Shown here in pieces: positions 18,112-63,890 of a stretch of DNA of 64,000 nt (positions within the stretch are counted from its first letter, which is position 1; every line of letters starts with the position of its first letter). The stretch spans positions 32,001 through 96,000 of the IMG/VR virus record IMGVR_UViG_3300045988_175722; one strand, given 5' to 3'. Source of the DNA: a virus. The translations under genes were made by a program, and so were the position numbers. The notes under the pieces are model-generated. The model ran no database searches, was not told where the DNA came from, and saw only the letters and a program-made list of their open reading frames with translations.

Positions 18112-18141
18112 CAAATAGAAAAATAAAGATTTATAGAGAAT

Positions 18142-18845: not shown

Positions 18846-18852
18846 TTACTTG

Positions 18853-20856: not shown

Positions 20857-20908
20857 ATTTTAAAATTTTGTTATCCTGAATGTATGTTGATTTAGCCGCG
20901 TCCTTGCG

Positions 20909-20950
20909 CCCGTTAGGCGTTCCTGCGGATTTGAAATCCGCAGACATGCC
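20909..20950. repeat. single iteron + palindrome unit (cluster Z)
   Basis: CCCGTTAGGCGTTCC-TGCGGATTTGAAATCCGCA, the same unit as in clusters X and Y. It lies between terL and the upstream minus-strand gene. Confidence 0.8.
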
Positions 20951-20964
20951 AGTTTTTTACAGTC

Positions 20965-21246: not shown

Positions 21247-21252
21247 TGTTGC

Positions 21253-21576: not shown

Positions 21577-21588
21577 AATTTCGCAGAT

Positions 21589-22359: not shown

Positions 22360-22379
22360 CCTCTATAAAACTGTTTTTA

Positions 22380-22977: not shown

Positions 22978-23010
22978 AAAGTCTATAAACTATTAACTAT
23001 AAATTATTAA

Positions 23011-23238
23011 CTATCTTAACTTTCCAATGTGCCATTTCGAGCACACCTTGCACTGATAAGCCGTATATCCTGCAGCCATGATTTTTTGGTGCAGCTTCAG
23101 AAACTCGCAGGCTTCATCTTCACTCTCGTAGGCAACCTTGGCTTTCCAGCCGTGACTGCTTTTCCTCGTCCAGTGTTCCGGATCAGGACGGAAGGGAGGT
23201 ATCTTGTTGGGATGATGATTTCCGTATCGCTTACTCAT
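23011..23238 (-). CDS. small protein with possible zinc-binding C-terminus (hypothetical)
   Basis: 75-aa ORF with CKVCSKWH near the C-terminus. Confidence 0.5.
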   Translation of the reverse strand: MSKRYGNHHPNKIPPFRPDPEHWTRKSSHGWKAKVAYESEDEACEFLKLHQKIMAAGYTAYQCKVCSKWHIGKLR

Positions 23239-24016
23239 CGGCTGGTTCCTCCTTCATTTCTTTAGCCTGCTGACCAGCCTCCTTCTCTTCCATCACCTCT
23301 TCCATATAGTCGAAGTAATCAGGAGCTTTTTCCGGAGTAGCATTCAGACTCTCCTCATCGGCTATCTGCTGCATATCCTTCACCGTAAGACCGTACTTGC
23401 GAGCCATCTTGCGCTTATACTCATCGGTATAGTTGATGCGGTCGTGCTTCACGATGCTAACATCCTGCGTAATGGCAATGCGGCTCATATCCGGCATCTC
23501 ATCCGTAGCATCCTTATCCTCCACGAAGTTGCCATATACATTAGCCAGGGCTTGCATACCCTTATCCACCGCTCGGTCGTTGTTCTGCTGTTTGCCGGTA
23601 CGAATCAGCCATTCAGCGCTGCTCAGATACATCGCCTTGTGACGAGGGCTTTCATCGGTCTGGAAGAAACGGATGATGTGGTTGCATACCGCCACATCAT
23701 TATTCAGTTCCGTAACCGTTCGGGGTTTGATATTTCCTTCCTCGTCAATATCAATATGCAGCGCCATCACCATCTCCTGCGCCTCTTTGTTGCCCTGTCC
23801 TGCCTGGTTCACGAAGAGCGTATAATCGCGCCGTGCGATATTGCGGCAGGTGGTACGCGGGTCTATATCGTTGTTCTGCACCCATCGCTTGTAGAACTCG
23901 GCACAAATCTGCATGCGGTACCGCTGTTCCAGTTTGGGGAACATCGTCTCCATGCTGAGACCATTGGATAGCCACTTATCTATCCTCTGCAGGGTGTTTT
24001 GCGTTAATTGGCTCAT
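23231..24016 (-). CDS. hypothetical protein (possible small terminase or DNA-binding protein, by position only)
   Basis: First gene of the minus-strand operon that ends with terL. 261 aa with an acidic C-terminus. No motif recognised. Confidence 0.55.
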   Translation of the reverse strand: MSQLTQNTLQRIDKWLSNGLSMETMFPKLEQRYRMQICAEFYKRWVQNNDIDPRTTCRNIARRDYTLFVNQAGQGNKEAQEMVMALHIDIDEEGNIKPRTVTELNNDVAVCNHIIRFFQTDESPRHKAMYLSSAEWLIRTGKQQNNDRAVDKGMQALANVYGNFVEDKDATDEMPDMSRIAITQDVSIVKHDRINYTDEYKRKMARKYGLTVKDMQQIADEESLNATPEKAPDYFDYMEEVMEEKEAGQQAKEMKEEPADE

Positions 24017-48756: not shown

Positions 48757-48896
48757 GAACCTGCGCAAGCAGAGGCAGAGCCGATGGTGATTGGTACTAC
48801 AACCCTCACTCCCAAAGGTTAGAAATTGGGGGAAGCATCAGTAATGCCATCTCCTCCATCGCTAAGGATTTTATGATTATCATTGAACACCGCTAG
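48738..48896 (+). CDS. TRD-like minigene T11 (52 aa, intact)
   Basis: MATIRIRTCASRGRADGDWYYNPHSQRLEIGGSISNAISSIAKDFMIIIEHR. It overlaps T10 by 19 nt, and its stop lies in the first iteron of palindrome cluster X. Confidence 0.4.
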   Translation: MATIRIRTCASRGRADGDWYYNPHSQRLEIGGSISNAISSIAKDFMIIIEHR

Positions 48897-49085
48897 GCGC
48901 TCGGCGGATTTGAAATCCGCCGTTAAAAAATGTCCTAACCTTTTTAGGCTCTGCGGATTTGAAATCCGCAGCAAGCAAGATTGTATCAAAGAATAGGGGG
49001 ATTACAGATCCCCCAGTTTAATAGGTCGAACCTTTTTTGACGGTGGATTTCAAATCCGCCGGAACGCCTAACGGAAGACTTTGTC
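48891..49085. repeat. composite palindrome cluster X (four GC-stem palindromes flanked by one iteron on each side)
   Basis: CGCTAGGCGCTC, GGCGGATTTGAAATCCGCC, TGCGGATTTGAAATCCGCA, GGGGGATTACAGATCCCCC, GGTGGATTTCAAATCCGCC, GGAACGCCTAACGGAAGAC. It is the reverse complement of the core of cluster Y. Confidence 0.85.
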
Positions 49086-49207: not shown

Positions 49208-51049
49208 ATGGCAAGCAAAAACAAAAACAGAGTAACCAACTTGCAGCAGTTCCAAAATCGTAGTGAGGAACTGAAAGATGCAGGCTACGTAGCCGTTCGC
49301 CCAGATGCCTTTACGTCGCCAAAGAACGGCGGCAATAAGGTCTTTTCCTGGAACGGCTACGTTCACAGCATGCTCCTAACCACAGCCGGTATGTCGGCAA
49401 GCGGTGGCGATGCAAGCGGTTCTGCAGCACGTCAGCAAGTCTCAACTATCTTTGCATCGAGTGGCGGCGAGAACCTGGGCAAACCGAAAGGCGTAGGTAC
49501 CGAAGGCTTAGGCTTTATGGAATGGGGTATGGCAAACCGACTGCCAAACCTTATCTGGATGCTCTCTCGCATGTCGCCTTTCACCGCAGCAGGAGTAGAT
49601 TACATCAAGAAAATATTGGTAGGTCGCGGTCCCGCAGCCAAGTATCACTACACCCAGTACGTAGGCGGTAACATCACAGAAAAATATATCCCCTACGAGA
49701 GTGCCGGAGTTTTGCTCCGTGGGCAGATAGCCGACCTGAAAGCCCAGGAAGAGGCAGCCGCCGAAGCCAAGCGCCAAAGAGAAGAGCAGCAGAACCGAAA
49801 CAACCAGCAGAACCCCAATGAGCAATCTCAGCAGTCAGAGCCACCGTTCCATGCGATTCCATCGCAGGTCTCCTCATCCCCCGAAGAAGAGGAAAGCGAG
49901 GAGATGAAATCCCTAAAAGAAGCTCTCCAAAAATGGGAAGAAACCAATGCCCAGCTTCGTGATTTCCTAGAAAACAACGACCTGATGCAGACCTTCCTCG
50001 ACCTGGCAGGCGATATGGCTTTGATGTCACAATGCTTTGTAGAACTTCAGCTCAACCAGCGTTCCCTCGACGAGAGCGGCAAAGCCGTTCCCACCGCTCA
50101 ATGGACTCCGAAGGTGATCGGCCTAAAGCACCGTAGTATCTTCACCACTCGCCTGGAGCGCATGGATGAGAACTACCGCATCAACTATGCCTACGTGAGC
50201 AATCAATGGCTCGACCCTACCCAATACGTCGGCGTACAGAAAGAGGAAGACCGCAAGATAGCTGCTATTCCTTATCTCCCTACCACATCGGCAGTAAAGG
50301 ATTTGCAGCGCAATATCCGTGAGGCACGTCAGAAGCAGGTAAGCCGCAAGAAACGCCCTACCCGCTTCATTATGTCGCCAAGAGATTTTGGCGGTCCCTA
50401 TTATGCCGATGCCCTTTGGCATTCAATCTTTGCCGGTAGCATTTTTGAGTATGCCTTTACTATCGTGGATGACCGCCTTACCCGAAAGCGCAACAGCAAT
50501 ATCATCGGTAGAGTTATCTATATCCATCAGGACTACATCAATAAGCTCTATCAGCAGCAGGGCGAACAGAAGAAGAAAACCATCGGTGAGATTCAGATCG
50601 AAATCTTCACCTCTATCAATACCTGGCTCGCCAATCCCGATAATGCAGGTCAGGCGCTCATCTCCTCTGCCTTCACGGGCAGCGACGGAAAGGAGCACAA
50701 GGCTTGGGAAATCGTGGAAATCGAAACCAAGGCAAACGATCAGGCAAATGCCGATAAAACCGAGTTGCAGGAAATAAGCAGCATTATCTTCTTTGCCATG
50801 GGTCTTGATGCAAAGCTCATCGGTAATACTCCTGGCGATACGGCATCATCGGGCGGTACCGACCTGAGAGAACGTTTCCTAGTCAAGCAAATCCAGTTTG
50901 CTCCATTGCAGCAATTAATGATACGTCCTCTGGAAGTTTTGAGCCGTTTTAACGATTGGGATGAGCACCTGGTATGGCAGATAGATCGAGAGGTATTGAC
51001 CACCCTCGACAACTCAAAAACCGGAGTTGCAAAGCAGGGGCAGGAATAG
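49208..51049 (+). CDS. portal protein (putative)
   Basis: 613 aa, first gene after a consensus promoter. The N-terminal WGMANRLPNLIWMLSRMSPFTAAGVDYIKKILVGRG resembles a pattern I associate with portal proteins of Bacteroidota phages. It contains an acidic insertion carrying a divergent hairpin motif copy. Confidence 0.6.
   Translation: MASKNKNRVTNLQQFQNRSEELKDAGYVAVRPDAFTSPKNGGNKVFSWNGYVHSMLLTTAGMSASGGDASGSAARQQVSTIFASSGGENLGKPKGVGTEGLGFMEWGMANRLPNLIWMLSRMSPFTAAGVDYIKKILVGRGPAAKYHYTQYVGGNITEKYIPYESAGVLLRGQIADLKAQEEAAAEAKRQREEQQNRNNQQNPNEQSQQSEPPFHAIPSQVSSSPEEEESEEMKSLKEALQKWEETNAQLRDFLENNDLMQTFLDLAGDMALMSQCFVELQLNQRSLDESGKAVPTAQWTPKVIGLKHRSIFTTRLERMDENYRINYAYVSNQWLDPTQYVGVQKEEDRKIAAIPYLPTTSAVKDLQRNIREARQKQVSRKKRPTRFIMSPRDFGGPYYADALWHSIFAGSIFEYAFTIVDDRLTRKRNSNIIGRVIYIHQDYINKLYQQQGEQKKKTIGEIQIEIFTSINTWLANPDNAGQALISSAFTGSDGKEHKAWEIVEIETKANDQANADKTELQEISSIIFFAMGLDAKLIGNTPGDTASSGGTDLRERFLVKQIQFAPLQQLMIRPLEVLSRFNDWDEHLVWQIDREVLTTLDNSKTGVAKQGQE
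49840..49870 (+). repeat. 32-nt hairpin motif, copy 12 (intragenic, divergent)
   Basis: CCACCGTTCCATGCGATTCCATCGCAGGTC inside the putative portal ORF. The stem TGCGAT/ATCGCA shows an A-T to T-A swap. Confidence 0.7.
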
Positions 51050-51086
51050 CCACTATGGTGCGATAACCGCTCCATAGCCCCCTCTC

Positions 51087-51118
51087 GCCCCCGTCCCCAG
51101 CGATTCCATCGCTGGTCC
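51087..51118 (+). repeat. 32-nt hairpin motif, copy 13
   Basis: GCCCCCGTCCCCAGCGATTCCATCGCTGGTCC, between the portal stop and the ATG at 51150. Confidence 0.9.
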
Positions 51119-51149
51119 CATATTATAATAACGTAAAAGCAAAAAGAAA

Positions 51150-52391
51150 ATGATAATCTCTACGAACCAAGAATTGCGTCTTCACGTTCCTAGCAACGCA
51201 ATCGACGATATAGCCACTATCCAGGGCATACTGGATAACAGCGAAAAAGATGTACTGAAGGATAAGCTCGGCGCATCACTCTATAACCGCCTGTGTGAGG
51301 AATACAAGAAGCTCGACCCGCTCGATTTCTACAACCACGTGCAGGATGGTACCTACATTCAATACCCTTGGGAAGAACTTCTGCTGAACGCCCAGCGTGT
51401 AGTAGCTAACGAGGCGATGGCTCGCTTTGCCTATCAGCAGGTTATTTCTATCAATGGCGCAGGAGTCAACATCGCTTCCAGCAACGACTACGATGCAGCC
51501 AGTGAAAAGCTGCTGGATAAGGGTGTAGCCGGATATAAGAAGGAAGCCATGGTTTCCCTCAATAACCTTCTGCTCATGCTCGAAAATATGGCGAAGATGG
51601 TGAAGACTTCGGCGAAAATTGCAGGCACGAATAATACGGAACATGCAGATTCAGAAAGTTCTGAAACACCAAAGAACGAGAGTTCCGAAGTGCAAAAGGA
51701 CGATAGTACTAACGTACCAAAGAACAATAATACTAATGTACCAAAGAGTGACAGTACGAAAGGCGATGATACGAAAGGCGATGGTGACACAGAAGGAACA
51801 CCCTCTCAGCCTACCAAGGACGAAATTCACGCCGCTCTAGAAGATATTATTCTCTTGTGGCAAGAAAGCCGATATTACTATCTGCATCATGATCTCCTCA
51901 TCCCAACCTGCGAAATCATGCAGCAGTATCTCGACATCTACGATAGCCGGGATAAGTTCATTCGTCTCATCCCAGATATGCTTTTTATTCAGAGCGAGTA
52001 TCTGGAAGAAGCTTTTGGCGAAGATTTCATTCCTCGCCTCTTGCAGGCCGATGAAAACGACAAGATGCTGAAGAAGGCACGCCAACTTGTAGTGGCTTAT
52101 CTCAAAGAGCGTACATCAGTCATTAATTTCGATAAGCTAGCCCGCTCCACAGCTCATAACGATGCCGTCACCGTAAGAGAAAGCATCCATCGGTTGCTGA
52201 AGAAAGAGGAAGCCGAGGCACAAGCCAAACTCGATGCAGCCAAAGCTGATAGTGCCACAGAAGGCGGCAATTCTTCCTCATCTACGAGTAACGCCTCCGG
52301 CGTTTCCCCATCGGGCAGCAAGGATAGCAATGAAGGTTACGAGAACAATCAAAAAGGTTCTCGCATCTTCGTAACCCCTATCCTGTGCTAA
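51150..52391 (+). CDS. hypothetical virion-associated protein
   Basis: 413-aa ORF after the portal gene, with a low-complexity acidic S/T/N-rich middle region. Confidence 0.6.
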   Translation: MIISTNQELRLHVPSNAIDDIATIQGILDNSEKDVLKDKLGASLYNRLCEEYKKLDPLDFYNHVQDGTYIQYPWEELLLNAQRVVANEAMARFAYQQVISINGAGVNIASSNDYDAASEKLLDKGVAGYKKEAMVSLNNLLLMLENMAKMVKTSAKIAGTNNTEHADSESSETPKNESSEVQKDDSTNVPKNNNTNVPKSDSTKGDDTKGDGDTEGTPSQPTKDEIHAALEDIILLWQESRYYYLHHDLLIPTCEIMQQYLDIYDSRDKFIRLIPDMLFIQSEYLEEAFGEDFIPRLLQADENDKMLKKARQLVVAYLKERTSVINFDKLARSTAHNDAVTVRESIHRLLKKEEAEAQAKLDAAKADSATEGGNSSSSTSNASGVSPSGSKDSNEGYENNQKGSRIFVTPILC

Positions 52392-52526
52392 AAAAAAGCT
52401 TATTTTCGCTTTTGTGTCGCATCAAGCGCTTTCAAAACCGCTTAATTTGACGTTTAATCGGGAATCAAGCTAAAAATAGGCAAAAAATATTCTTAATTTT
52501 CAAATAAGCAACAAAAAAAAGGATTT

Positions 52527-53618
52527 ATGGAAAATTTATCTAAAGAACAGATTGTTCAGATTCTTGCCCCTGTCATTGGAGCCAGAATGCTTACCGCCGA
52601 TCAGCGAGATGCTTTCGAGCAGGGTCTTTCCATTTTGGAAAGTACCACCAAGGCAAAATCATTTGTAAAAGACTCACGCCGATTTAAAGACTACCATCGC
52701 CGTGTGCGTCAGATGATAACTTATCTGCAAACCCTCGATGCCAGCAGCGCAGTTTCTGCCACCGATAAGCGACGTGTGGGCAGACCGACAAAAGAGGAAC
52801 AGGCAGCCTATGCCGAGCTCCAAAAGCAGAAAGCCCTGGAAGAGGCAAAGCAATCCCTCTTCCCTAACATGAAGCCCGACACCACCGTGCAGCCGCTTAC
52901 TTACAATGGTATCGTAGCCAATCCAAACGGCGAGAGCATCGCAGCCACCATGCCAAACCTGATGCAGTTGCGTCCGTTCCTCTCTACCGCTCTTCAAGAG
53001 CAGGTGAACAACGTGCGTGATCTCCGCAGCGAAATGGCGAGCAAAGCAGAGCAGGCTAAGACGATGGCAGAAGCCAACGAGAAAGCTATCTCACAAGGTA
53101 AGAGCGCCATCTACACCGAGGATGAGATTGCCGCTCTCGCCACAAGAGCCGTAGAAATCGAGAGCGATATTCTCCCCGAAATCTTCAAGGCAGTAGATAG
53201 AGAGATGGGTGAGTGCTACCTGCGACTGAGCGAGAAGACCGGAGACCCTGAGTATATCGCCTATGCAAAGAAGGCCTTCACCATCGACCCTCAGACCCTC
53301 CGCACCCAGTTTAAGCCATTCTACGAGAAAGCGCAGTCTCGTGACCCTCGTTTCGCCGAGCAGGTAGCCGAGAAGATTGCCAGCGACCGCCCCGAAGTAA
53401 AGGCAGCCCGTGATGCAGCCGCCAAGCACAAGGCAGAAGCCGATGCCCTTATCAAGTACATCATCCGCAAGGATAAACCATCTACCAAGACAAGAGTAAA
53501 AGGCATCAAGGGCCGTATCGACGATCTCCGCAACAAATACTCCGACGTAGTAACCGAGGAGGAACTAAAAGGCTATGAAGCCATCCTCGCCAAAACAGAA
53601 GAGGAAAGTGCGTCTTAG
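52527..53618 (+). CDS. hypothetical protein (helical, A/K/E-rich)
   Basis: 363-aa co-oriented ORF. Confidence 0.6.
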   Translation: MENLSKEQIVQILAPVIGARMLTADQRDAFEQGLSILESTTKAKSFVKDSRRFKDYHRRVRQMITYLQTLDASSAVSATDKRRVGRPTKEEQAAYAELQKQKALEEAKQSLFPNMKPDTTVQPLTYNGIVANPNGESIAATMPNLMQLRPFLSTALQEQVNNVRDLRSEMASKAEQAKTMAEANEKAISQGKSAIYTEDEIAALATRAVEIESDILPEIFKAVDREMGECYLRLSEKTGDPEYIAYAKKAFTIDPQTLRTQFKPFYEKAQSRDPRFAEQVAEKIASDRPEVKAARDAAAKHKAEADALIKYIIRKDKPSTKTRVKGIKGRIDDLRNKYSDVVTEEELKGYEAILAKTEEESAS

Positions 53619-53651
53619 AAATACAAAAGGCAAGAAGCGTCTTGCTAGCTT

Positions 53652-53683
53652 GCACCACCGTTCCCAGCGATTCCATCGCTGGG
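53652..53683 (+). repeat. 32-nt hairpin motif, copy 14
   Basis: GCACCACCGTTCCCAGCGATTCCATCGCTGGG followed by TTCTTTTTT and the promoter -33 box. Confidence 0.9.
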
Positions 53684-53689
53684 TTCTTT

Positions 53690-53726
53690 TTTGTCCCCCC
53701 TAATAAGAAAAAATCTCCTATCTTTG
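53690..53726 (+). promoter_or_regulatory. Bacteroidota-type promoter (-33 TTTGTCCCCCC, -7 TATCTTTG)
   Basis: TTTG at 53690-53693 and TATCTTTG at 53719-53726. Directly after hairpin motif copy 14. Confidence 0.7.
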
Positions 53727-53750
53727 CCTTATAAATAAAAAGAAAAAGCA

Positions 53751-54428
53751 ATGGCAAAAAATAAAGAAACCCCCGAACAGCGCACCCAGCGGTTCAAATC
53801 CCTCTGCATCGGCATCCTTGCCCAGAGCGGCAACTGCCAGGAATCGCAGTCAGCTTTCCATCGGGCAGAATCCATCCCCGATATGTGCGAGGCGTGGCGC
53901 AAGTACTGGCACGGTTTAATCACTGAGGTGCCGCAGCAGGTAATAGATGCTTTCAAGGCGGTTTATCCTGAATTTAAGGCAGATATAAACCGAGGCGGTA
54001 TCTTTTACAACGAAGACTCGCCCACCGGAAACGTTCTTGTGGGCGATACCGATGAAATTATCCATCTCTACTCCTCCCGAAAGATATACATCCTCGGTAA
54101 GGCGCACGTGGTGCTCCATAATGCCGCCACTGCCATCGCCATGAACCCCCACTGCAAGGTAGAACTCTACGATGGCAGCAAGGCAACGCTGAAGGCAGGT
54201 TACGGCATAGCCCACAACTATGCCCACCTGGTAACTTGCGGCGAAGCCGAGTGTTACGACCAGAGTGTGGTTTTCATTACCGATGGCACCCTTCACGACT
54301 ACGGGCACAAGAAAATCAACGCCTTCGGTAATGCCCTGGTGGACACCTTTACCCATCGTCTGATTGACACCTACGATAGGGCGAGAATTGAAGTAAGGAA
54401 GCAGCCATCAGAACCATTCATCGTATGA
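53751..54428 (+). CDS. hypothetical protein
   Basis: 225-aa ORF downstream of a consensus promoter. Confidence 0.6.
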   Translation: MAKNKETPEQRTQRFKSLCIGILAQSGNCQESQSAFHRAESIPDMCEAWRKYWHGLITEVPQQVIDAFKAVYPEFKADINRGGIFYNEDSPTGNVLVGDTDEIIHLYSSRKIYILGKAHVVLHNAATAIAMNPHCKVELYDGSKATLKAGYGIAHNYAHLVTCGEAECYDQSVVFITDGTLHDYGHKKINAFGNALVDTFTHRLIDTYDRARIEVRKQPSEPFIV

Positions 54429-54471
54429 TGAAGCATTCACAGATAAACATCAAAGAAATAAACACCAGAAA

Positions 54472-57366
54472 ATGAACTCACATCTCGCAATATTAATCAA
54501 CGACAAGCCGGTAGCCCTGCCCGATGATTTCTCCATCGATATAGAGGATCAGAACCCCGTGTTCAACGATACGGAGATGTTCTCCTATCCTTTCTCTATT
54601 CCCCTGGATGGCAATCGCTGGCTTGTCAAGAACATAGAAGACGTGCATGCTGCCGTGAGAGCCGTGAACATGGAGCATTTGCCTACCCGAATCCATGCCG
54701 ACGGACTTCCCTTCCGCAGCGGTACCCTGGTGATGCAGGACGATGAGGAGATAACCAACTCGCTTTCGATGAATATCGATGCCAGCACGCAGAGTTTCAG
54801 CGACCTGATCAGCAACCTGCAATGCCGGGATATTCCGGTCAAAGACCAGCTTATCATCGGCGAGAAGATAGGCAATGTAAGGGTGGATATTTGGAGCAAT
54901 CCGACCATCCAGGTGCATCTTCACAGCGACGGCAAGAAGGGCGGCAAGAATGCCACCGCTACCGTGAAAGCCACTCCTCTCAGGGCAAGTAAAGTGCTTG
55001 AACCGCAGGCACTCGGTTTCTCCTATCCTGGCTCTTGCAGGGAATACACATATAATACAAGTGACCACCATATCGGCGATGCCTACAACAAAGGCACGAA
55101 GTCATACGCTGCCAGCAAGGTGAACGTCAATATTCCGCAGGAAATTTCGCAGGGAAGCTATATCAATACCTCGGCCGCCTATGGCGAAACCGATAACGCA
55201 GGCAGGGCTACCGCATATTGCAATGCCCGCATTTGCTACAGACATCATGCGCTGGAAGATGATGGCAGTACGTCGAGCGACACCATCAAGATGGATAAGT
55301 GTACATGGATAGATGAGGATCTTTATCCTTACTGGGTATTGGATGCCAAGCGTCCGCAATCGGGTATCTGCTTCTACGTGCTCTATTTCCTGGATTGCCT
55401 CTTCGCTCATCTGGGCGTAAGTTTCGACAAAAGAGCTTTGCTAAAGATAGAAGACTTGAAGCATCTCTGTTTCTTCACCACTGTTTGCGGCTACGATACC
55501 ATCGAACACCCACATCACGGCGATTATTACGAAGCGAAGGAAATTCAGGATGCCAAGGATATTGTCAACGACAAAAAGTACAAAAAAGGCAGCAATCCAG
55601 AGGCGGAGATTATCGCCGAAAAATCGGTAGGAGAAATCAAGACGGGTTTTTTCTCCTCTCAGGAACACATCAATTCCTGGCTCGAAAGCCGCGGTTGCGG
55701 CGGTCAGATTGAGATAACCAAAGCCGAGGATAAGGAGGTGCAGGAACTCGACCTTGCCGTAACGGAAAATGGCGTGACGACTACCCGTCATATTCAGGTG
55801 GGAGAGGTGGTTACTTTTCCTCCTGGCAAGGGAATGAAGGTAACGGGTATTACCATTGAATCGAATATTGAGAAATTCGAGGTACAGGGCAATGTGCTCT
55901 ATATGGTAGCCAATAGCGACAACTTCCCCGACGAGAGTGTAAGTACCGTTATTTCTTCGCTCGAGAATGCGTTTGGTATCAAGTTCTCTTACGATTACGA
56001 ACAGAAGAAAGTAACCGCTTATCTCACTCGTGATATTCTCCGCAGAAGCGGTGATACGCCAAGAAATTTCCACGCCAACATCCACTCGATGGTGCCCATG
56101 AGCGAGAAGATTACGGGTGTGCGTATGCGATATTCTGCCGAAGCCGACAAAAAAGAGCAGCAGGGCTACACCAAGCGCAACGCCCAGGGAGATTATCTTG
56201 ATTCCGGCTACGACACCGATTATAACTATACGGAATACCCTCTGCCCGATGGCGACTCGAGCAAATCGGGTAGAACCATTACCAACATGAAATACGTAGA
56301 ATTTTTCCACAACATCAGTAACCCTGGTGATAGAAATTGCTACATCGACCGCGCCACTGGCAATGCTTATCGCGTAAAGGTAAACAAGGAAGCAAGGACT
56401 TCCAATGAGCTGAAACCTGTATTGTTCGAGGTGGGTCAGTTCAAGGGTGTTGAGTATGGGGATTGCCGTGAAGAGAATGAGGATTTCATCCACGACATCA
56501 GTATAGATTTCACGCCAGTACCCTTCAATGACGTAAACTACTTCAAGGAGGTGGAAGCCGCTTATGGTATTCACTCCGCAAAGGGCGATAACGGCGAAGA
56601 TTATCTTGCCAATATCAGGGGGGTGCAGCAGCCTATTCTCTGCGCTTATGTAGATGAGGATATGGAGCACGAGTTTGTAGAGCAGGAAATCAACCAGGTT
56701 ATCTCTTCTGCCTTCTGCAATTACTATATGAAGCAGAAACTGAAGCTCGTGGAAAGCTATGACCCGTCGGGTACCGATGATGGCAATTCTCCTTTGCAGG
56801 ATAAATCCCGTTGGGGCTTTGCGGTAGCCTTGATGCGAGGCGGTGGCAGCGATGCCACCCTGCAACCTTACGATTACAACTACGACCATTTTGGTACATC
56901 CAAATGGCGCACCAATGCCGGTGAGTATGCCCTAGCCTGCGATTCACTGGACATGATGGGCAATGTGTTTGATTATAACGGTGTGCAGGAAGGTGTAGGC
57001 ACTGGAGAGCGTTTCTCGCTAAAAATACGAGCTTTCAAGGAGCCATCGTGGATGAATGATCCGAAATACAAGGATATAGTGGTCTGCAATGAAGATGAGA
57101 TAGATGAGAACGGGGAGGTAGTAACTAAAATCCGCTCCCGTGGTCTCTTTGATACCTTCATTCTCCCCTACGCCTATTTCCTCTTGAATAGGAAGAAATT
57201 CAAAATAAGATGCACCACCACGGTAGCCCAGGTTGCTGATATACCAAACCACTGGCAGGAATGGTGGAACATAGGCGGCATGAAGTGCCTCATTGACAAG
57301 GTAAACACCACCATCGATGCCAAGACGGGCATGGGCGAAGTAGAGCTAACGGTATATGCCCTCTAA
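54472..57366 (+). CDS. large structural protein (baseplate or tail-associated, putative)
   Basis: 964-aa uninterrupted ORF in the late block. The long antisense ORF 55441-56889 is judged spurious. Confidence 0.65.
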   Translation: MNSHLAILINDKPVALPDDFSIDIEDQNPVFNDTEMFSYPFSIPLDGNRWLVKNIEDVHAAVRAVNMEHLPTRIHADGLPFRSGTLVMQDDEEITNSLSMNIDASTQSFSDLISNLQCRDIPVKDQLIIGEKIGNVRVDIWSNPTIQVHLHSDGKKGGKNATATVKATPLRASKVLEPQALGFSYPGSCREYTYNTSDHHIGDAYNKGTKSYAASKVNVNIPQEISQGSYINTSAAYGETDNAGRATAYCNARICYRHHALEDDGSTSSDTIKMDKCTWIDEDLYPYWVLDAKRPQSGICFYVLYFLDCLFAHLGVSFDKRALLKIEDLKHLCFFTTVCGYDTIEHPHHGDYYEAKEIQDAKDIVNDKKYKKGSNPEAEIIAEKSVGEIKTGFFSSQEHINSWLESRGCGGQIEITKAEDKEVQELDLAVTENGVTTTRHIQVGEVVTFPPGKGMKVTGITIESNIEKFEVQGNVLYMVANSDNFPDESVSTVISSLENAFGIKFSYDYEQKKVTAYLTRDILRRSGDTPRNFHANIHSMVPMSEKITGVRMRYSAEADKKEQQGYTKRNAQGDYLDSGYDTDYNYTEYPLPDGDSSKSGRTITNMKYVEFFHNISNPGDRNCYIDRATGNAYRVKVNKEARTSNELKPVLFEVGQFKGVEYGDCREENEDFIHDISIDFTPVPFNDVNYFKEVEAAYGIHSAKGDNGEDYLANIRGVQQPILCAYVDEDMEHEFVEQEINQVISSAFCNYYMKQKLKLVESYDPSGTDDGNSPLQDKSRWGFAVALMRGGGSDATLQPYDYNYDHFGTSKWRTNAGEYALACDSLDMMGNVFDYNGVQEGVGTGERFSLKIRAFKEPSWMNDPKYKDIVVCNEDEIDENGEVVTKIRSRGLFDTFILPYAYFLLNRKKFKIRCTTTVAQVADIPNHWQEWWNIGGMKCLIDKVNTTIDAKTGMGEVELTVYAL

Positions 57367-57375
57367 CTCCCTCTC

Positions 57376-57407
57376 GCCCCCGTTCCCAGCGATTCCACCG
57401 CTGGTCC
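57376..57407 (+). repeat. 32-nt hairpin motif, copy 15
   Basis: GCCCCCGTTCCCAGCGATTCCACCGCTGGTCC, 9 nt after the stop at 57366 and 30 nt before the KS ATG. Confidence 0.9.
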
Positions 57408-57437
57408 CATAACAAGAAACATAAAAACGAAATAAAA

Positions 57438-58646
57438 ATGGATAGAAAAATAATAATCACCGGAACCGGCATCCTTTCCGCTATGGGCAGGAATACAAAG
57501 GAAGTAGCCATGAATCTTTATCATGGCAAATGCGGCTTGCATCATGATGAATGCCGTGATAACTACATCTCCGATTTATGCGGCGACGTGTGTAGCTACG
57601 AAAAAGATTACCATGATATTCTTACTCATGCACAATGCGAATGTATGCCTGTACACGGTTTCGACGTGCTCGATGCAGTATTCGAGGCGCTGAAGGAAGC
57701 AAAGGTTAGTAAAGAGTTCTTGGAAAACCATAACGTTTCCATCGTCGTAAGCAACGATTCTGAATGCTACGAGAGTAGGTGTGTAGTGAATCATGTAGAT
57801 GAGGACAACTTCAATAATTCCTTGCCGGTAAGTACCCTCTTCCGCTCACTTAATTCCACCATCAGCATGAACCTGGCTACCATCCTCGGTATTCATGGCT
57901 TATCACTTACTGTAAGCGCAGCTTGTGCAGGAGGTGGCCACGCCATTGGTTTGGCGAAGATGCTTCTCGATAGCAAACAGACCGAAATGGTAATTGTGGT
58001 TGGCGCGCAGGAATACGAGTCTCAATATTGCATGGAAGCTTTCGATGCCCTGGGTGTCTTCTCACCCGATAAAGTGCAGCCATTTGGTAAAGGCAGAAAT
58101 GGACTCGCACCATCGGGCGGTGCAGCCTGCATCATCCTCGAACCATCGGATAGCCTTCGCCTGAAAGAAGAGAAAGTGCATTCCTTCGCTTCTCTTTCCG
58201 GCTATAGCTTTTCAACAACCGGAAAAGCTATCACTACTCCTGATGCCTATCAGGAAGAAGTATCTATGGTCAATGCCATCGAGAACGCGGGTCTGGATGA
58301 AGGCATGATAGATGTGGTTCTCGCCCACGCCACGGGTACCCCAATGGGTGATGCAGCGGAAGCGGAAGCCATCGGAAAGATTTTCTCTATCTGTCCGAAT
58401 GTGGTAGCCACGAAGGGCATGACAGGCCACGAGTGCTGGATGGCAGGCGTATCGCAAGCCGTGCAAGCCGTAATCATGTTCACCTATGGCCGTCTGTTTC
58501 ATGCAGCCACTACCGAGGAGAATGCCTTCCCGGAATTGAACCTGGTGATGCGCCCTAAGTATTACTCACCTCATCATATCCTCTGCAATGCCTTCGGTTT
58601 TGGTGGTACCAACGCATCCTTTGTCGTCTCAAAGGTTCCTCGTTAG
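57438..58646 (+). CDS. beta-ketoacyl-ACP synthase (KAS I/II-like condensing enzyme)
   Basis: Active-site pattern SAACAGG (Cys), HATGTPMGD (His), KGMTGHECWMAG (His) and C-terminal NAFGFGGTNASFVV. Confidence 0.85.
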   Translation: MDRKIIITGTGILSAMGRNTKEVAMNLYHGKCGLHHDECRDNYISDLCGDVCSYEKDYHDILTHAQCECMPVHGFDVLDAVFEALKEAKVSKEFLENHNVSIVVSNDSECYESRCVVNHVDEDNFNNSLPVSTLFRSLNSTISMNLATILGIHGLSLTVSAACAGGGHAIGLAKMLLDSKQTEMVIVVGAQEYESQYCMEAFDALGVFSPDKVQPFGKGRNGLAPSGGAACIILEPSDSLRLKEEKVHSFASLSGYSFSTTGKAITTPDAYQEEVSMVNAIENAGLDEGMIDVVLAHATGTPMGDAAEAEAIGKIFSICPNVVATKGMTGHECWMAGVSQAVQAVIMFTYGRLFHAATTEENAFPELNLVMRPKYYSPHHILCNAFGFGGTNASFVVSKVPR

Positions 58647-58656
58647 TCTTTCCCGC

Positions 58657-58975
58657 AAAGTCTTCCGTTAGGCGTTCCAACAAAGTCTTCCGTTAGGCGT
58701 TCCAACAAAGTCTTCCGTTAGGCGTTCCGGCGGATTTGAAATCCGCCGTCAAAAAAGGTCCCAACCTATAAAACCGGGGGATTTGCAATCCCCCAATCAT
58801 TATCAGCACCCTTGCTTGCTGCGGATTTCAAATCCGCAGGGCATAAAAAGGTTGGGTCATTTCTTAACGGCGGATTTCAAATCCGCCGAGCGCCTAGCGG
58901 GATAAAGCGCCTAGCAGGATAAAGCGCCTAGCGGGATCGAGCACCTAGCGGAAGATAAGGATTTGCAATCCGCAC
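58657..58975. repeat. composite palindrome cluster Y (3 left iterons, four palindromes, 4 right iterons)
   Basis: 3x CAAAGTCTTCCGTTAGGCGTTCC (period about 25 nt), then four palindromes (GGCGGATTTGAAATCCGCC, GGGGGATTTGCAATCCCCC, TGCGGATTTCAAATCCGCA, GGCGGATTTCAAATCCGCC), then 4x GCGCCTAGCGGGATAAA-like units (period 17 nt). Confidence 0.85.
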
Positions 58976-59009
58976 AATCAAAATTCAAACAATATTTCAG
59001 CAAAAAGCA

Positions 59010-59261
59010 ATGAAGCAAGAAGAAATAACCCCTCGCATCATCGGCATCGTGAATAGTTTAAAAACCTCGTGGGTCAACCACGAGGTTACGCCTTCTTCTA
59101 ATCTCCGAGACGAAATCCAGCTTGAATCCATCGATATGCTCGATATGATTCAGCAGGTGGAAATGATGTTCCATATCAGAATCACACCCGAGGAAGCCGC
59201 GAAATGTAAGCTCGTCTCCGATGTAATCAACCTGGTTTCTATTAAACAAAAGCAAAAGTAA
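59010..59261 (+). CDS. acyl carrier protein-like
   Basis: 83 aa. The LESIDMLDMIQQVEMMF segment matches the DS(L/I)D phosphopantetheine-attachment helix pattern. Confidence 0.7.
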   Translation: MKQEEITPRIIGIVNSLKTSWVNHEVTPSSNLRDEIQLESIDMLDMIQQVEMMFHIRITPEEAAKCKLVSDVINLVSIKQKQK

Positions 59262-59262
59262 T

Positions 59263-60330
59263 ATGGCAAAGAAAATCACCCTTACATCGGGTTCCATCCT
59301 CGCCGGAAACCCGATAACGCTCTCTATTCAGCCCGAGGTACTGAAATCTCCCACCTTTCATCGTGTCATTGTGGAAGTAACCTTTTCCAATCTTCAGGAT
59401 GATTACGAAACCGTGGCACTCTCGGTTCCCGTGACCCAGGAAAAAGAAGGTGCAGAGGTGTCTCTCGATATCTCTTCCGCCATCCGCATTCCGCTGGATA
59501 GCTACACCTACTCGCCGCTACCTGCCACCTATCCCAAGGTAAGCTGGTACGTAAGAGCCTACGATGAGTACATGGATAACAACGGCAGACTGCATACGGG
59601 CGCAGACACGGGTGCGGTTTATTTTCCGCAAGCACCGCTAAACGGCATCAACACCAACCTGCGCTGCATAGCGGGTGCCTTCAACGATATGGAACGATTA
59701 AAAGCTGGTGTAACGAAAGCCGTGACGAATCTTTCCGCCAAGCCTACATCAAGTCCGGAACCATTCGTAGTAGGCGAATCCTTCATCTACCCAGTTCCTT
59801 ATGCAGAGCCGCAGACGTTAGCCGCTAGTGCTACCCTGGCCGCGCCCTCGTCTTCTGGAACCATCATCTTTCAAGAAGGCATGCAGACCATCAATGACCA
59901 CCACCCTATCTACGCCCTACCCGATACGGAAGCAGAAAACCGCACCACCTTCCGCTTCATCAACCGTTTCGGTTGCCTGGAAAGCGTAAATGTGCCGAAA
60001 AGCTACAGCCAGAAGATGAGTGCGGACAGCGCATCCTATACCATCGCCAAGCAGGAAACCTTCAATGAGTTTTCTCACTTCGTCATTCACAAGCAGAATG
60101 ACCGGGAATCCTGGCTTTTCCAAACCGACCCGTTAGATAAAGAGTGGCTGCAATGGTACTATCACGAGTTTCTGATGGCAAAGCATGTATGGCTGAAAAT
60201 CTCCGATACCTGGGTTCCATGCACCATTGCCCTGGAGGATGAAATCACCATCAAGGACGATACCGCGCATACGTATCACGCCGTAAGCTTCACGGCAACG
60301 CTGGGTATCAACGGAAGCCCACTAGTGTAG
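59263..60330 (+). CDS. hypothetical structural protein
   Basis: 355-aa ORF starting 1 nt after the ACP stop. Confidence 0.6.
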   Translation: MAKKITLTSGSILAGNPITLSIQPEVLKSPTFHRVIVEVTFSNLQDDYETVALSVPVTQEKEGAEVSLDISSAIRIPLDSYTYSPLPATYPKVSWYVRAYDEYMDNNGRLHTGADTGAVYFPQAPLNGINTNLRCIAGAFNDMERLKAGVTKAVTNLSAKPTSSPEPFVVGESFIYPVPYAEPQTLAASATLAAPSSSGTIIFQEGMQTINDHHPIYALPDTEAENRTTFRFINRFGCLESVNVPKSYSQKMSADSASYTIAKQETFNEFSHFVIHKQNDRESWLFQTDPLDKEWLQWYYHEFLMAKHVWLKISDTWVPCTIALEDEITIKDDTAHTYHAVSFTATLGINGSPLV

Positions 60331-60345
60331 CTAATAGTCAGTCCT

Positions 60346-60375
60346 GCCCCCGTTCCCAGCGATTCCATCGCTGGG
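60346..60375 (+). repeat. 32-nt hairpin motif, copy 16
   Basis: GCCCCCGTTCCCAGCGATTCCATCGCTGGG followed by TTCTTTTTTTT and the promoter -33 box. Confidence 0.9.
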
Positions 60376-60383
60376 TTCTTTTT

Positions 60384-60420
60384 TTTGTCCCACCCATTTC
60401 CTCCTTTTCTCGTACCTTTG
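60384..60420 (+). promoter_or_regulatory. Bacteroidota-type promoter (-33 TTTGTCCCACCC, -7 TACCTTTG)
   Basis: TTTG at 60384-60387 and TACCTTTG at 60413-60420. Directly after hairpin motif copy 16. Confidence 0.7.
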
Positions 60421-60488
60421 CATTATCACATTCAAAGAAGAAGTATCGCATACACAAACATCAAAAAATAATAATAAAGGAAAGATAA

Positions 60489-62645
60489 ATGGCAACAGAA
60501 GCAAAAACCACCAACTATTGGATTTCGAGCAATGCACTCTATATCCAGCTCAACGCCATGGGTGAACCCGACTACACGCAATGCAGTGTGGCCACGGGTG
60601 CATCCATCCTCTGCTATATGCAGGGCGTAAAAGGCTTGGAGTATGATGCAGGGCACAACTACCAGCGGTGGCCTCTTGCTGCATACCCTTCCATCTTCCC
60701 CGATAGCGAAAAGAAATATGTGTATGCTGCCATCCCCCGTACCCGTCTCTCGGAAGGCGACCAGGCTACTATCGTGTTCCCTGGGCAGCGTATCGACCTC
60801 TATGGCAAGGCGATCATCTCAACCAAAAACGAAGATGGTACCACATCCGAAACCGAGGGCGAACAGATAGGTAACGAGGGCTTTTATTACATCTTCCTGC
60901 AAGGTATCATATCGGAAGTAAAGACTGATACCGACGGCGTGACCCGCAAGCGTGAGTGGAGCCAGCAGATGAACTTCGGTTCCCTGGCCACCGATGAAGC
61001 CTTGGCTTCGGGCGGTGAAGGCGCATGGTGGAAATATAACTCTGCCTCTGATACCGTCACCTTCTTAAAAACCATTCAGAAGGCGAATTTCGAGGAACTG
61101 GCTGCGAAATCAGCCACCCTCACTAAGCTCATCCTCGGCAATAGCCCACTCACGGGCATTGCCAATGCTGAAACTCTGGATGATAACAACGAGCGCATCG
61201 TAACGCCGCTCTATCTGGGTTTGTTCGGCGAGAAGCATTTTCTGGCCAAAGACAAGGATGATACCGCCCATGGCACCATCACCTTTGAGAAGGTGCAGAA
61301 GTTTCTCAGCGGTTTGGTAGCCCAGAAGGAATCGAGTTTTAAAGGTGGTGCAACCTTCGGCGATTTCGTCAAGGGCATCTTAATCGGCAGCGGTGCCAAT
61401 ATTGATGCCCTGGGCAATGCTGAGTTTCAGAGTATCACGGCACGCAGTTCGATTATCGCCAAGGAACTCATCGTAAACCGCCAGACCGCCATGGAAAGCA
61501 ACTTTGTCTTCACAGAAAGCGGATTGGTGGAAAAAGTGATTGAGCATGCTCCGGAAGCGGAAGGCGGAAATCCTACCTACACCCTGCAGCTTCAGAAACG
61601 ATGGGAGAATGATTTCACGGCATTCAAGGAAAATGACGTGGTGCTCGCCTCCGTCAACACCCTGATGCAGGACGGCAAATACTACGATATCTGGTTCCGC
61701 ATCCTCGATGTAAACACGGTGAAGAATACCATCGATGTGGTGTGCTATCCAGATAATGAGGTGCCGAGCCAGAAGAACTATCCGCCCTGCGAACTGGCAC
61801 GACTGATACGATGGGGTAACGCCACTGATACTGCCAGACAAAGTTGCTGGTATATTTCATCGGAAAACGGCGTATTGGTATGGCTCGATCACGTAACCAA
61901 GCCTATCATTGATATATCGAATTACTCCGTGGCTATCGGTAGAATGCCTGACGAACTGCGGAATTTCGTGTTCAAGGACTATCCTATCAACGATAGAGAC
62001 AGCGCCTTCTACGCCAAATACCTTGCCGTGCAGAAGCAGGTGCAGGTGGATTTCCAGGGCAACGTGATACAGAAGGTGGTAGATAGAGGTATCTGGTCGC
62101 TCACCGTAGCCGAGAGCAGCAACCCCTACCGCTGTACTAATATCGAGGTACACGATGTGTGGCACAATGGCTGCAAATGGCGCTGCCTGAAGGATAAGAC
62201 GGCAAACAAGCCACAATATGCCAGTACTGACTGGGCGTTTGTGGAAGGCAACCCTGAGTTTACCTGCAAGATTTTTGGTGCTGAAGATATTTTCGATGGC
62301 GATTATATCTCGCAGCCCGATGCCAACGGCAAATATCCGGTGTTTACCACACTGAGTGTAAAAGGTTATCTTTACAACGAGGACGTGACTGCCCACATCA
62401 AGGAACGCCATGTAACATGGACCCGTGACAGCGGCAATGTGGCAGAGGATAACACCTGGGCAGCCATACATGCCAACTCCGGCTTTTCGGTGCCGCTCAC
62501 CTGGGAAGACCTGGGCAAGAACGCATCCGAACGCTTCAGCTGTAAGTTTAAGGTAACGGTAATCATCATCGATGAGACCACTGAAACCAACGCCACGGAC
62601 ACCAACCGCACCAAGCAGGCAAGCGATGAACTGACATTTAATTAA
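60489..62645 (+). CDS. tail fibre or receptor-binding-like protein (putative)
   Basis: 718-aa ORF downstream of a consensus promoter. Assigned by size and position only. Confidence 0.55.
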   Translation: MATEAKTTNYWISSNALYIQLNAMGEPDYTQCSVATGASILCYMQGVKGLEYDAGHNYQRWPLAAYPSIFPDSEKKYVYAAIPRTRLSEGDQATIVFPGQRIDLYGKAIISTKNEDGTTSETEGEQIGNEGFYYIFLQGIISEVKTDTDGVTRKREWSQQMNFGSLATDEALASGGEGAWWKYNSASDTVTFLKTIQKANFEELAAKSATLTKLILGNSPLTGIANAETLDDNNERIVTPLYLGLFGEKHFLAKDKDDTAHGTITFEKVQKFLSGLVAQKESSFKGGATFGDFVKGILIGSGANIDALGNAEFQSITARSSIIAKELIVNRQTAMESNFVFTESGLVEKVIEHAPEAEGGNPTYTLQLQKRWENDFTAFKENDVVLASVNTLMQDGKYYDIWFRILDVNTVKNTIDVVCYPDNEVPSQKNYPPCELARLIRWGNATDTARQSCWYISSENGVLVWLDHVTKPIIDISNYSVAIGRMPDELRNFVFKDYPINDRDSAFYAKYLAVQKQVQVDFQGNVIQKVVDRGIWSLTVAESSNPYRCTNIEVHDVWHNGCKWRCLKDKTANKPQYASTDWAFVEGNPEFTCKIFGAEDIFDGDYISQPDANGKYPVFTTLSVKGYLYNEDVTAHIKERHVTWTRDSGNVAEDNTWAAIHANSGFSVPLTWEDLGKNASERFSCKFKVTVIIIDETTETNATDTNRTKQASDELTFN

Positions 62646-62663
62646 AAATAAAAAGTAAGAATC

Positions 62664-63890
62664 ATGATTATTTCAAAGACAACCAAACTCGACATCCAGC
62701 ATGAACCGCTAGACGTGAGTTGCAACATCGTCGCCCACGGCGGTATTCCCGACCGGCAGGTGTTTGATAGTGCCAGCGGCGGTTATACTCCCGACTATTC
62801 GGTAGATGCTCCGCTCTGTCTCTATCCGCAGTGCCGAGCCTTCGGTTCCAACGAGAGTACGCCGGATGGCGGTATCGTTAACAGTGACGCAAAGAACTTT
62901 TCTTTTGCCTGGTATGAGCTTGTGTTCGATAAGGCGAAAAATAAGTACGTGCGTGGCGAAGCCCTTAAAAGCAGTGCTTCCTACACTGTGGTAGAAACAT
63001 CAGCCGATGGACTGATTCGAGGCATGCTGCTGGTACGCAAGAATGCCCAGCCGAACAATCCGATCCGTCTGGAGTTTGAAGCCAATTACACCGACAAGGC
63101 AAACCGCGTACTCCACTATCTGGGGCAGAAGAACGTAACCTGCGATGATATGGAGGCTGCCACTCCAGTGATGCACCTTACGCCTACATCGTCTATCTTC
63201 AATCCTCTGAAGGAAAATTCAAAGGTGACTTTTGATGTATTGATTACCGACGGCAACAGCAATATCACTAACAATAAAAATGTGCTTATCAAGTGGTACC
63301 GCAAGGTGAACGTGAACGGCACATCTTACGATTTGCAGGAGGTGAAGGCTAGCGGCATTGACGATGTAGAAGTTCTTGAACTCTCTACCAAAACCGTTAC
63401 CATCGACGGCAAGGACGTAAGTTCGCCGGGCAGCAAGCTCACCATCGACCGCAGTCTGATAGGCGAGGAGATACAGTATGTGTGCAAGGCAATACGCCGT
63501 CCTACCCTGTCAAAATCAGATGATTTCACCGATCGAGATCCATCGCAGACCGTGGGTGTGCGCTGGCAACTTCCAGCCATCAAGGTGACAACCTACGGCA
63601 TGATGGACACCGCCGACGAGCAGCAGGAGACTATCAATCCTAGCTTCGATATTCGTGACGTGCAGACGCAGGAAGTATATGAAAACTGGGCTGACTTCTA
63701 CAACATCTCCTGGCAGGTGAAGAATCCGGGCGAAATCGCCTTCAAGGAAGTTTCTACCGAAGCCAACCCTTCTATTCCGTTTATAGCGGGCATGGGGGTG
63801 CAGCTGGGCGTAGAGCCAAAGGGACCGAAGAAACTGGTTACTGCAGGCGGCAAGCAAATGACGATAGACGGCAAGTTCCTGGTAGTATAA
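62664..63890 (+). CDS. hypothetical structural protein (tail fibre module by position)
   Basis: 408-aa co-oriented ORF. Confidence 0.55.
   Translation: MIISKTTKLDIQHEPLDVSCNIVAHGGIPDRQVFDSASGGYTPDYSVDAPLCLYPQCRAFGSNESTPDGGIVNSDAKNFSFAWYELVFDKAKNKYVRGEALKSSASYTVVETSADGLIRGMLLVRKNAQPNNPIRLEFEANYTDKANRVLHYLGQKNVTCDDMEAATPVMHLTPTSSIFNPLKENSKVTFDVLITDGNSNITNNKNVLIKWYRKVNVNGTSYDLQEVKASGIDDVEVLELSTKTVTIDGKDVSSPGSKLTIDRSLIGEEIQYVCKAIRRPTLSKSDDFTDRDPSQTVGVRWQLPAIKVTTYGMMDTADEQQETINPSFDIRDVQTQEVYENWADFYNISWQVKNPGEIAFKEVSTEANPSIPFIAGMGVQLGVEPKGPKKLVTAGGKQMTIDGKFLVV

Follow-up and report, generated by a model that had tools for sequence, protein, structure and literature searches.

The 64,000-nt stretch of viral DNA analysed here (the window; positions 32,001-96,000 of the IMG/VR record IMGVR_UViG_3300045988_175722) carries a gene for a β-ketoacyl-acyl carrier protein synthase, referred to below as the ketosynthase (KS), and, downstream of it, a gene for an acyl carrier protein (ACP). 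The KS gene (57438..58646, + strand) encodes a protein of 402 amino acids, which is assigned to the elongating β-ketoacyl-ACP synthase (KAS) I/II type by Pfam matches, structure-sequence alignment and motifs. Its match to PF00109 spans residues 3-237 (1.7e-23, 83.9 bits) and that to PF02801 spans residues 251-353 (9.3e-18, 64.8 bits), both above the Pfam cut-off of 20.8 bits. The protein aligns over its full length to structures of FabB and FabF, the top one being Brucella FabB 3u0f (E=2.8e-39). An initial annotation of the window, made from the letters alone, had described a full condensing-enzyme pattern in this open reading frame (ORF), and the motifs quoted there do hold the catalytic residues: SAACAGG includes Cys163, HATGTP includes His297, and ATKGMTGH includes Lys326 and His331, with FGFGGTN as the gating loop.

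In the alignment, residues C163, H297, K326, H331 and F388 of the phage KS correspond to C163, H298, K328, H333 and F392 of FabB, and the catalytic motifs are unchanged across nine diverse phage homologues of 58-87% identity; the catalytic assignments are thus properly aligned. Judged by its sequence, the KS has everything that decarboxylative Claisen condensation requires, and condensing activity is predicted. It is not an orthologue of the housekeeping enzymes, as evident from its scores against the equivalog models of FabB (NF005935, 160.8 bits vs a cut-off of 630) and FabF (TIGR03150, 154.6 bits vs 493.75). Distant similarity extends to type II polyketide synthase (PKS) and cispentacin-type models (NF005490, 1.9e-43; AmcF, 8e-34), and a search against the PHROG families returned no match. 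The motifs SAACAGGGH and TGHECWM are the signatures of the subfamily to which the phage KS belongs.

The ACP gene (59010..59261, + strand) encodes 83 amino acids, with Ser40 in LESID as the phosphopantetheine site and an acidic helix II after it. The reading of this ORF as an ACP-like protein with a serine helix is borne out by matches to PF00550 (3.6e-5, 24.4 bits; cut-off 20.8), to the NCBIfam ACP models (4.5e-11) and to phrog_5934, annotated 'acyl carrier protein' in the category 'moron, auxiliary metabolic gene and host takeover'. Ser40 aligns with Ser36 of E. coli AcpP and is invariant across the homologues. The ACP looks competent for conversion to the holo form, presumably by a host AcpS. 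Both the ACP and the KS are divergent. With the last nucleotide of the ACP stop codon at 59261 and the ATG of the following gene at 59263, the 1-nt spacing given in the initial annotation is confirmed.

A search for the same gene pair in related phages found it, always paired, in at least 60 contigs. The KS occurs at 58-88% identity in at least 60 IMG/VR contigs of 85-110 kb and in hundreds of ENA/Logan contigs, and the gene order portal-g413-g363-g225-g964-KS-ACP-g355-g718 is preserved in all 57 of the 57 full-length related loci. The gap between KS and ACP ranges from -4 to 83 nt in 52 relatives, with a mode of 2 nt, which suggests that the two genes are normally translationally coupled. Uncorrected pN/pS values are 0.17 for KS and 0.165 for ACP, alongside 0.23 for g964, 0.35 for g355 and 0.09 for the portal gene; the Jukes-Cantor corrected omega of KS is ~0.095. 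These sequence-level ratios show that the KS-ACP pair is kept under purifying selection.

The partner enzymes of a fatty-acid or polyketide pathway were searched for by Pfam scans of 76 window ORFs (10 + 10 + 56) and of 45 ORFs lying outside the window-equivalent region of a relative, whose genome was tiled to 104,310 bp from loci L229, L218, L178, L014 and L222. Neither set contains a phosphopantetheinyl transferase (PPTase), a malonyl or acyl transferase, a ketoreductase (KR), a dehydratase (DH), an enoyl reductase (ER) or a thioesterase, so that the absence of partner enzymes initially reported for the window holds for the 76 window ORFs and is extended to the 45 ORFs of the relative. ApeI/ApeP-type dehydratases, a dedicated KR and MMPL/LolA export proteins are likewise missing from the window and from the rest of the relative's genome. 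A second KS or Cys-less chain-length factor was not found in either, as there is a single ketoacyl-synt match; the pair thus lacks the composition of a minimal type II PKS (KS-alpha, chain-length factor and ACP). No lipid or polyketide gene other than KS and ACP was detected in these ORFs.

Comparison with more distant phages elucidates how the pair came to its present position. Relatives of g964, the gene upstream of KS, at 36-47% identity (L283, L291, L300, L303) have a homologue of g355, the gene downstream of ACP, that begins 15 nt past the end of g964, and both KS and ACP are missing from the interval. Since g964 and g355 are 15 nt apart in these distant relatives, the KS-ACP pair appears to be an insertion and not a part of the module. 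The contigs of the KS-less loci L283, L291, L294, L300 and L303 were not among the best 80 of 186 viral matches.

The nearest KS relatives beyond the window clade (37-44% identity) are also located on phage contigs, each with an ACP gene adjacent. One sister group of ~100-kb phages (L364-L375) shares the tape-measure protein (TMP, 33-37%), the primase (44-46%) and ThyX (~40%) with the lineage of the window. In this group the order is reversed as compared to the window, ACP then KS, and the pair lies between TMP and primase; in L067 ACP-KS is upstream of TMP, and in L061 and L372 the pair is placed between a C5-methylase and the primase. The phage-like contig L063 carries KR-KS-ACP (9,318-11,423), a gene order as in bacterial clusters. 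In L372 an apparent second ACP-like ORF (13,996-14,211) is seen ~5 kb downstream of the ACP-KS pair.

The pair is kept while its neighbours change, and it is placed at module junctions, which is the behaviour of a cargo cassette (moron or auxiliary metabolic gene, AMG). By gene order, KS-ACP is an apparent two-gene auxiliary cargo ('moron'-type) cassette and not a structural component. It has phage genes on both sides, is present or absent at the same junction among relatives and is under purifying selection. Contamination or mis-set prophage borders are not at issue, as phage genes flank the pair on both sides and the arrangement is conserved across a deep clade.

The closest GTDB matches of the phage KS (33-39% identity) all belong to Bacteroidota (Chryseobacterium, Flavobacterium, Alistipes, Prevotella, B. 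fragilis and Chitinophagaceae), and the next tier consists of proteobacterial FabB proteins at 24-29%. The Bacteroidota KS genes lie in KR-KS-ACP cores together with ApeP/ApeI-like dehydratases, a 4HBT thioesterase, MMPL, LolA and an FAD oxidoreductase. The Flavobacterium homologue adjoins a tyrosine ammonia-lyase and a DarB-like KAS III, a combination known to mark the flexirubin cluster. Clusters with KR-KS-ACP and Ape-like genes are present in Prevotella as well (loci L090 and L100). The motif TGHE[CF]WM after the second catalytic His is common to the phage and Bacteroidota KS proteins, in place of GHSLGA or GHLLGA in FabB/FabF. A profile of the phage ACP scores the Bacteroidota KS-linked ACPs above AcpP; BLASTP of the phage ACP against the ACP of the L064 cluster gave nothing, and the link between the phage ACP and other Bacteroidota KS-linked ACPs came from the profile search only.

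Bootstrapped neighbour-joining trees gave 100% support to the window clade, to the clade of Bacteroidota cluster KS proteins and to the FabB-like clade, with the phage KS outside the latter. The whole GHExWM subfamily, which stands apart from FabB and FabF, received 95%. The cellular sister group was not settled by the tree: viral monophyly was supported at 60% and the sister relationship of viral and Bacteroidota sequences at 10%. Owing to this weak support at the deep nodes, the donor is not settled, and the capture or captures are regarded as old. The phage KS is classed from these comparisons as an elongating KAS whose nearest cellular cousins are polyene-pigment enzymes. An assignment as an 'aryl-polyene KS' was considered and rejected, since ApeR (23%, 78 bits) and ApeO (24%, 83 bits) of E. 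coli CFT073 score below E. coli FabB (28%, 128 bits).

When set against known systems, the phage KS resembles FabB and FabF, its best-scoring characterised homologues, in fold, length, end-to-end alignment, the Cys-His-His triad, the active-site Lys and the GFGG loop. It differs from them in being only 23-28% identical, in scoring far under the equivalog cut-offs, in having CAGGGH and GHECWM where FabB/FabF have CATSAH/CTSGVH and GHSLGA/GHLLGA, and in adjoining a private ACP with no fabD, fabG, fabZ or fabI. The flexirubin/aryl-polyene-type KR-KS-ACP cores of Flavobacterium, Chryseobacterium, Prevotella and B. fragilis contain the closest cellular homologues and share with the phage the TGHECWM motif and the KS-then-ACP order. 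The phage, however, lacks their KR, ApeI/ApeP dehydratases, thioesterase, MMPL/LolA export, tyrosine ammonia-lyase and DarB; furthermore, the Bacteroidota KS clade is monophyletic to the exclusion of the viral sequences (100%), and the Bacteroidota KS proteins are themselves uncharacterised.

ApeO/ApeR with ApeE/ApeF of E. coli CFT073 are comparable in that KS proteins resembling those of type II fatty-acid synthesis (FAS II) work with dedicated ACPs and build a membrane-anchored polyene. GHECWM is absent from ApeO/ApeR, the phage has no chain-length factor (ApeC) partner, and the KS of a gut Bacteroidales cluster is 35% identical to ApeR as compared to 23% for the phage KS. NodE/NodF of rhizobia are a dedicated KS and ACP that use the housekeeping FAS enzymes. 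By analogy drawn from general knowledge, the phage KS and its private ACP also stand alone and are presumed to borrow host FabD, FabG, FabZ and PPTase; NodE/NodF are bacterial symbiosis genes and not phage genes, and the two systems are compared by gene arrangement only.

A literature search found only loose precedents and no description of the present cassette. One precedent is fabG-acpP-fabF in predicted prophages of Rhodobacteraceae, genes that were interpreted as AMGs (PMC8224337), and the isoprenoid genes of 'Flandersviridae' were reported as an unprecedented lipid manipulation by gut phages (PMC8008677). These cases, like the ACPs of phrog_5934, are also cellular lipid-pathway genes on phages; the present pair differs in that its KS has no PHROG family and in its conservation across a deep, abundant gut-phage clade.

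The unit g225-g964-KS-ACP-g355 is bounded by two identical terminator-like hairpins, each with a T-run, at 53663..53683 (+) upstream and 60355..60375 (+) downstream. They belong to a lineage-specific 19-nt hairpin, CCAGCGATTCYATCGCTGG, of which the window holds 15 copies vs 0.14 expected (418, 5156, 18023, 33217, 34500, 36696, 37777, 42439, 43492, 44482, 51097, 53664, 57386, 60356 and 63902), all in the same orientation and mostly 12-48 nt past stop codons. It occurs about 2.3 times per 20 kb in close relatives and is absent from the sister phages. A T-run follows only 2 of the 15 copies, those at 53,663 and 60,355; a variant copy, without a T-run, of the punctuation hairpin CCAGCGATTCYAYCGCTGG is located between the g964 stop and the KS start (57386..57404, +). 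RNA processing sites or protein-binding sites are possibilities for the T-less copies. Since the only two T-run hairpins bracket the unit, co-transcription of g225-g964-KS-ACP-g355 is plausible. The terminators and the tight spacing suggest that KS and ACP are probably part of a late transcript that also covers g225, g964 and g355, and to this extent the co-expression with late structural genes proposed initially is plausible. A sigma-70 promoter scan yielded 7 sites vs 9.4 expected, with a model that does not cover Bacteroidota promoters.

The pair had also been described as embedded in a tail-fibre module and flanked by large structural ORFs, a description that is only partly supported and is reasonable for the downstream side. 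There, g718 (60489..62645, +) is fibre-like, with matches to phrog_26822/17422 and, weakly, to the tail-fibre family phrog_2929, and further downstream a 374-aa protein matches 'tail protein' and a 954-aa protein matches 'tail fiber'. The immediate neighbour g355 (59263..60330, +) exhibits a weak tail-tube/baseplate fold likeness: its model (pLDDT 69.5) has no PDB fold match with E<1e-3, and the list of matches is enriched in baseplate and tail-tube folds. The g355 family occurs in Bacteroidota siphophages, with BFVD relatives from siphophages of Flavobacterium, Polaribacter and Nonlabens. On the upstream side, g964 (54472..57366, +; 964 aa), which abuts g355 in the KS-less relatives, is a highly conserved, Cys/His-rich core protein of the phage group (mean column identity 82%) and has no Pfam, PHROG or PDB match; its AlphaFold2 model, built from a shallow multiple sequence alignment, reached a pLDDT of 30. 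When g964, g355 and g225 were searched as profiles against the sequences of the PDB, no match fell below E=0.1.

The homologues of g718 range from 687 to >2,700 aa in otherwise syntenic relatives (L001, L010 and L026, positions ~12,700-21,000), and g408 is scarcely conserved (24-27%); variable g718 length and poor g408 conservation are hallmarks of host-range cassettes. Beyond the fibre genes lies a diversity-generating retroelement with a reverse transcriptase (RVT_1, two matches), bAvd and an Lcl_C/C-type-lectin-like target domain, located in L060 at 11,645-12,883 (~7.7-8.9 kb past the window end) and also in tiles L222/L229 of the relative. A downstream walk with the L060 reverse transcriptase found no viral relatives.

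The 363-nt gap between KS and ACP in this genome (58647-59009) is a dense repeat and palindrome cluster, in accordance with the palindrome cluster (Y) that the initial annotation had placed between the two genes. It contains a repeat resembling a miniature inverted-repeat transposable element (MITE; 58641..58975, +), with a core of ~195 nt (58,705-58,900), terminal inverted repeats, four 21-nt hairpins CGGCGGATTTSAAATCCGCCG and ends expanded into tandem arrays (3 x 25 nt; 4 x 17 nt). A second copy of ~195 nt, 89% identical and in the opposite orientation, lies upstream of the portal gene (48890..49085, -), and a solo hairpin is found at 20,927, at the edge of a minus-strand block (18,853-24,016). 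The motif is absent from 55 of 55 related loci and from the tiled relative genome. Many gut metagenome contigs devoid of phage genes carry the full element at 82-89% identity, and proteins on these contigs cluster with '30S ribosomal protein S1 [uncultured Prevotella sp.]', 'TlpA... [uncultured Prevotella sp.]' and 'SusC/RagA'. As Prevotella-type contigs carry the element and 55 relatives of the phage do not, a Prevotella-type MITE-like repeat appears to have invaded this one phage genome, and the repeat suggests Prevotella as a candidate host. In the 20-kb loci of named genomes bearing the KS cluster the hairpin is not found, and the repeat and the cluster are not linked on one contig.

The genome itself is that of a tailed phage of ~104 kb. 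The window encodes a TMP of 2,091 aa (26202-32477), a prohead protease, ThyX, a BT4734-type primase, a C5-methylase, a GH108 endolysin, a holin and a DNA polymerase III beta clamp, and its portal (49208-51049) is a distant relative of that of Polaribacter phage Leef_1. Megablast of the 54-62 kb region against 50,697 deposited phage genomes gave zero matches, and tblastn of the KS against deposited phages (INPHARED) reached a top identity of 35.6%, apart from host-like FabB/FabF in doubtful records. The lineage is probably one of ~100-kb siphophages of Bacteroidales, with Prevotella as the likely host genus.

The gene order of the window is unusual, in that genes for replication and nucleotide metabolism (primase, ThyX), head (protease, probable capsid protein), lysis and methylase separate the TMP (26,202-32,477) from the portal and fibre region (49,208-63,890). 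The minus-strand block at 18,853-24,016 is the only one in the window; one of its ORFs, of 667 aa, matched neither Pfam nor PHROG. No tRNA genes are present in the window. The relative IMGVR_UViG_3300045988_165550 (tiles L229, L218 and L178) encodes a ParA-type ATPase (AAA_31/CbiA), a Rep3-like initiator domain and helix-turn-helix regulators, and no integrase was detected in it; the relative may be carried in a plasmid-like manner, as a phage-plasmid.

Taken as a whole, these observations favour, with a probability of about 55%, the interpretation that KS-ACP is a retained auxiliary cassette that would draw on host enzymes for the elongation of an acyl or polyenoyl chain carried by the phage ACP. 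The ancestor of the ~100-kb lineage would have acquired a stand-alone elongating KS with its dedicated ACP, inserted between two adjacent tail-region genes. Because the phage encodes no other lipid enzyme, the pair would have to rely on host functions. A host AcpS-type PPTase would make holo-ACP and host FabD would load malonate onto it, after which the KS could condense malonyl-ACP with an acyl or polyenoyl primer; the β-keto product would be processed by a host KR and DH, with or without an ER, drawn either from FAS II or from a host polyene cluster. In a logic like that of NodE/NodF, malonyl units would be channelled by the private KS/ACP pair into an acyl or polyenoyl chain of a specialised kind. 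An envelope lipid of the infected cell is the most likely product, and the phage may benefit through a supply of membrane or pigment, through oxidative protection or through remodelling of the surface. Among the roles proposed initially, the synthesis of an acyl product during infection fits the sequence data best.

Several observations weigh against this interpretation. The dependence on host enzymes is inferred solely from the absence of partner genes. The hairpin-rich 363-nt element splits a normally coupled pair and could attenuate the expression of the ACP in this genome. Tail genes (TMP, g355 and g718-like genes) are neighbours of the pair in several lineages, which keeps a virion-related role in consideration. 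The tree gives only low support to a cellular sister group of the viral clade. Moreover, the phage KS is no closer to ApeO/ApeR than to FabB, so that a polyene product is not established and an ordinary fatty acyl chain appears equally possible.

Alternatively, the pair might simply be an extra FabB/FabF and AcpP that sustains the acyl supply for phospholipid and lipopolysaccharide, with no specialised product. FabB and FabF are the top-scoring characterised homologues, and the fabG-acpP-fabF genes of predicted Rhodobacteraceae prophages (PMC8224337) offer a parallel; however, the scores far under the equivalog cut-offs (160 vs 630 and 154 vs 494), the 95%-supported subfamily apart from FabB/FabF with its cellular members in pigment and secondary-lipid clusters, and a private ACP that simple boosting would not need make such a generic booster doubtful. 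A rather improbable reading is that the phage programs its own specialised acyl or polyene lipid through flexirubin/aryl-polyene-type or FAS II enzymes of Prevotella, for a phage-specific purpose. Such a lipid might decorate or prime the tail tip or baseplate encoded in the same operon, or remodel the outer membrane against competitors or oxidative stress. A self-contained small molecule is very unlikely: the minimal KS and ACP composition and the distant likeness to type II PKS and cispentacin-type KS models would suit a KS that iterates on the phage ACP with no reduction, giving a short poly-β-keto, pyrone or resorcinol-type signal or anti-defence metabolite, but the genome has a single KS gene, neither the window nor the ORFs of the relative yielded a loading enzyme, a thioesterase, a cyclase or a chain-length factor, and the KR kept in one sister lineage argues for reduced chains.

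The acylation of a virion component, as suggested initially for the tail fibre, is weakened by the insertion status of the pair, its other sites in sister phages, the lack of a protein acyltransferase and the lipid-pigment character of the cellular homologues. In this scenario an acyl chain would be put on a tail, baseplate or fibre protein, or held in the tail tip, and would aid adsorption or membrane penetration. The pair does share its terminator-bracketed unit with g964 and g355, upstream of fibre-like proteins, g355 has its weak tail-tube/baseplate similarity, and in sister lineages the pair often abuts the TMP gene. Against this, distant relatives keep g964-g355-g718 with no cassette, the pair lies beside replication genes (methylase/primase) in L061 and L372, the insertion sites are module boundaries typical of cargo genes, and neither an acyltransferase nor a lipoprotein-type signal was found in the window ORFs or the remaining ORFs of the relative; virion lipidation is accordingly considered unlikely. 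ACPs are interaction hubs, and just two pathway components are present, which would be compatible with a decoy in which the KS and/or ACP sequesters host malonyl-ACP, AcpS, FabD or their partners and shuts down or re-routes lipid synthesis with no useful product. A pure binder would not require the full Cys-His-His-Lys set, and neither the KS catalytic residues nor the ACP serine vary over a range of 58-100% identity, with purifying selection acting on both genes. That the pair interferes with the fatty-acid synthesis of the host, another of the initial proposals, is disfavoured by this strict conservation of every catalytic residue, and a decoy function is highly improbable.

Lipid genes of phages are usually reported as isolated AMG matches that are hard to tell from host contamination; here the pair sits between phage genes. 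Its deep conservation and its recurrence in sister clades at other positions argue for a real, selected function in the infection of Bacteroidales, the dominant bacteria of the gut, and the host-type MITE provides a Prevotella lead for an uncultured group of phages. If the phage does program a lipid of its own, the pathway would be the first of a type II PKS-like kind to be programmed by a phage, and it would be found in very abundant phages of the human and animal gut. If the product is a specialised envelope lipid or a virion modification, the KS-ACP cassette would represent a new category of phage-host metabolic manipulation.

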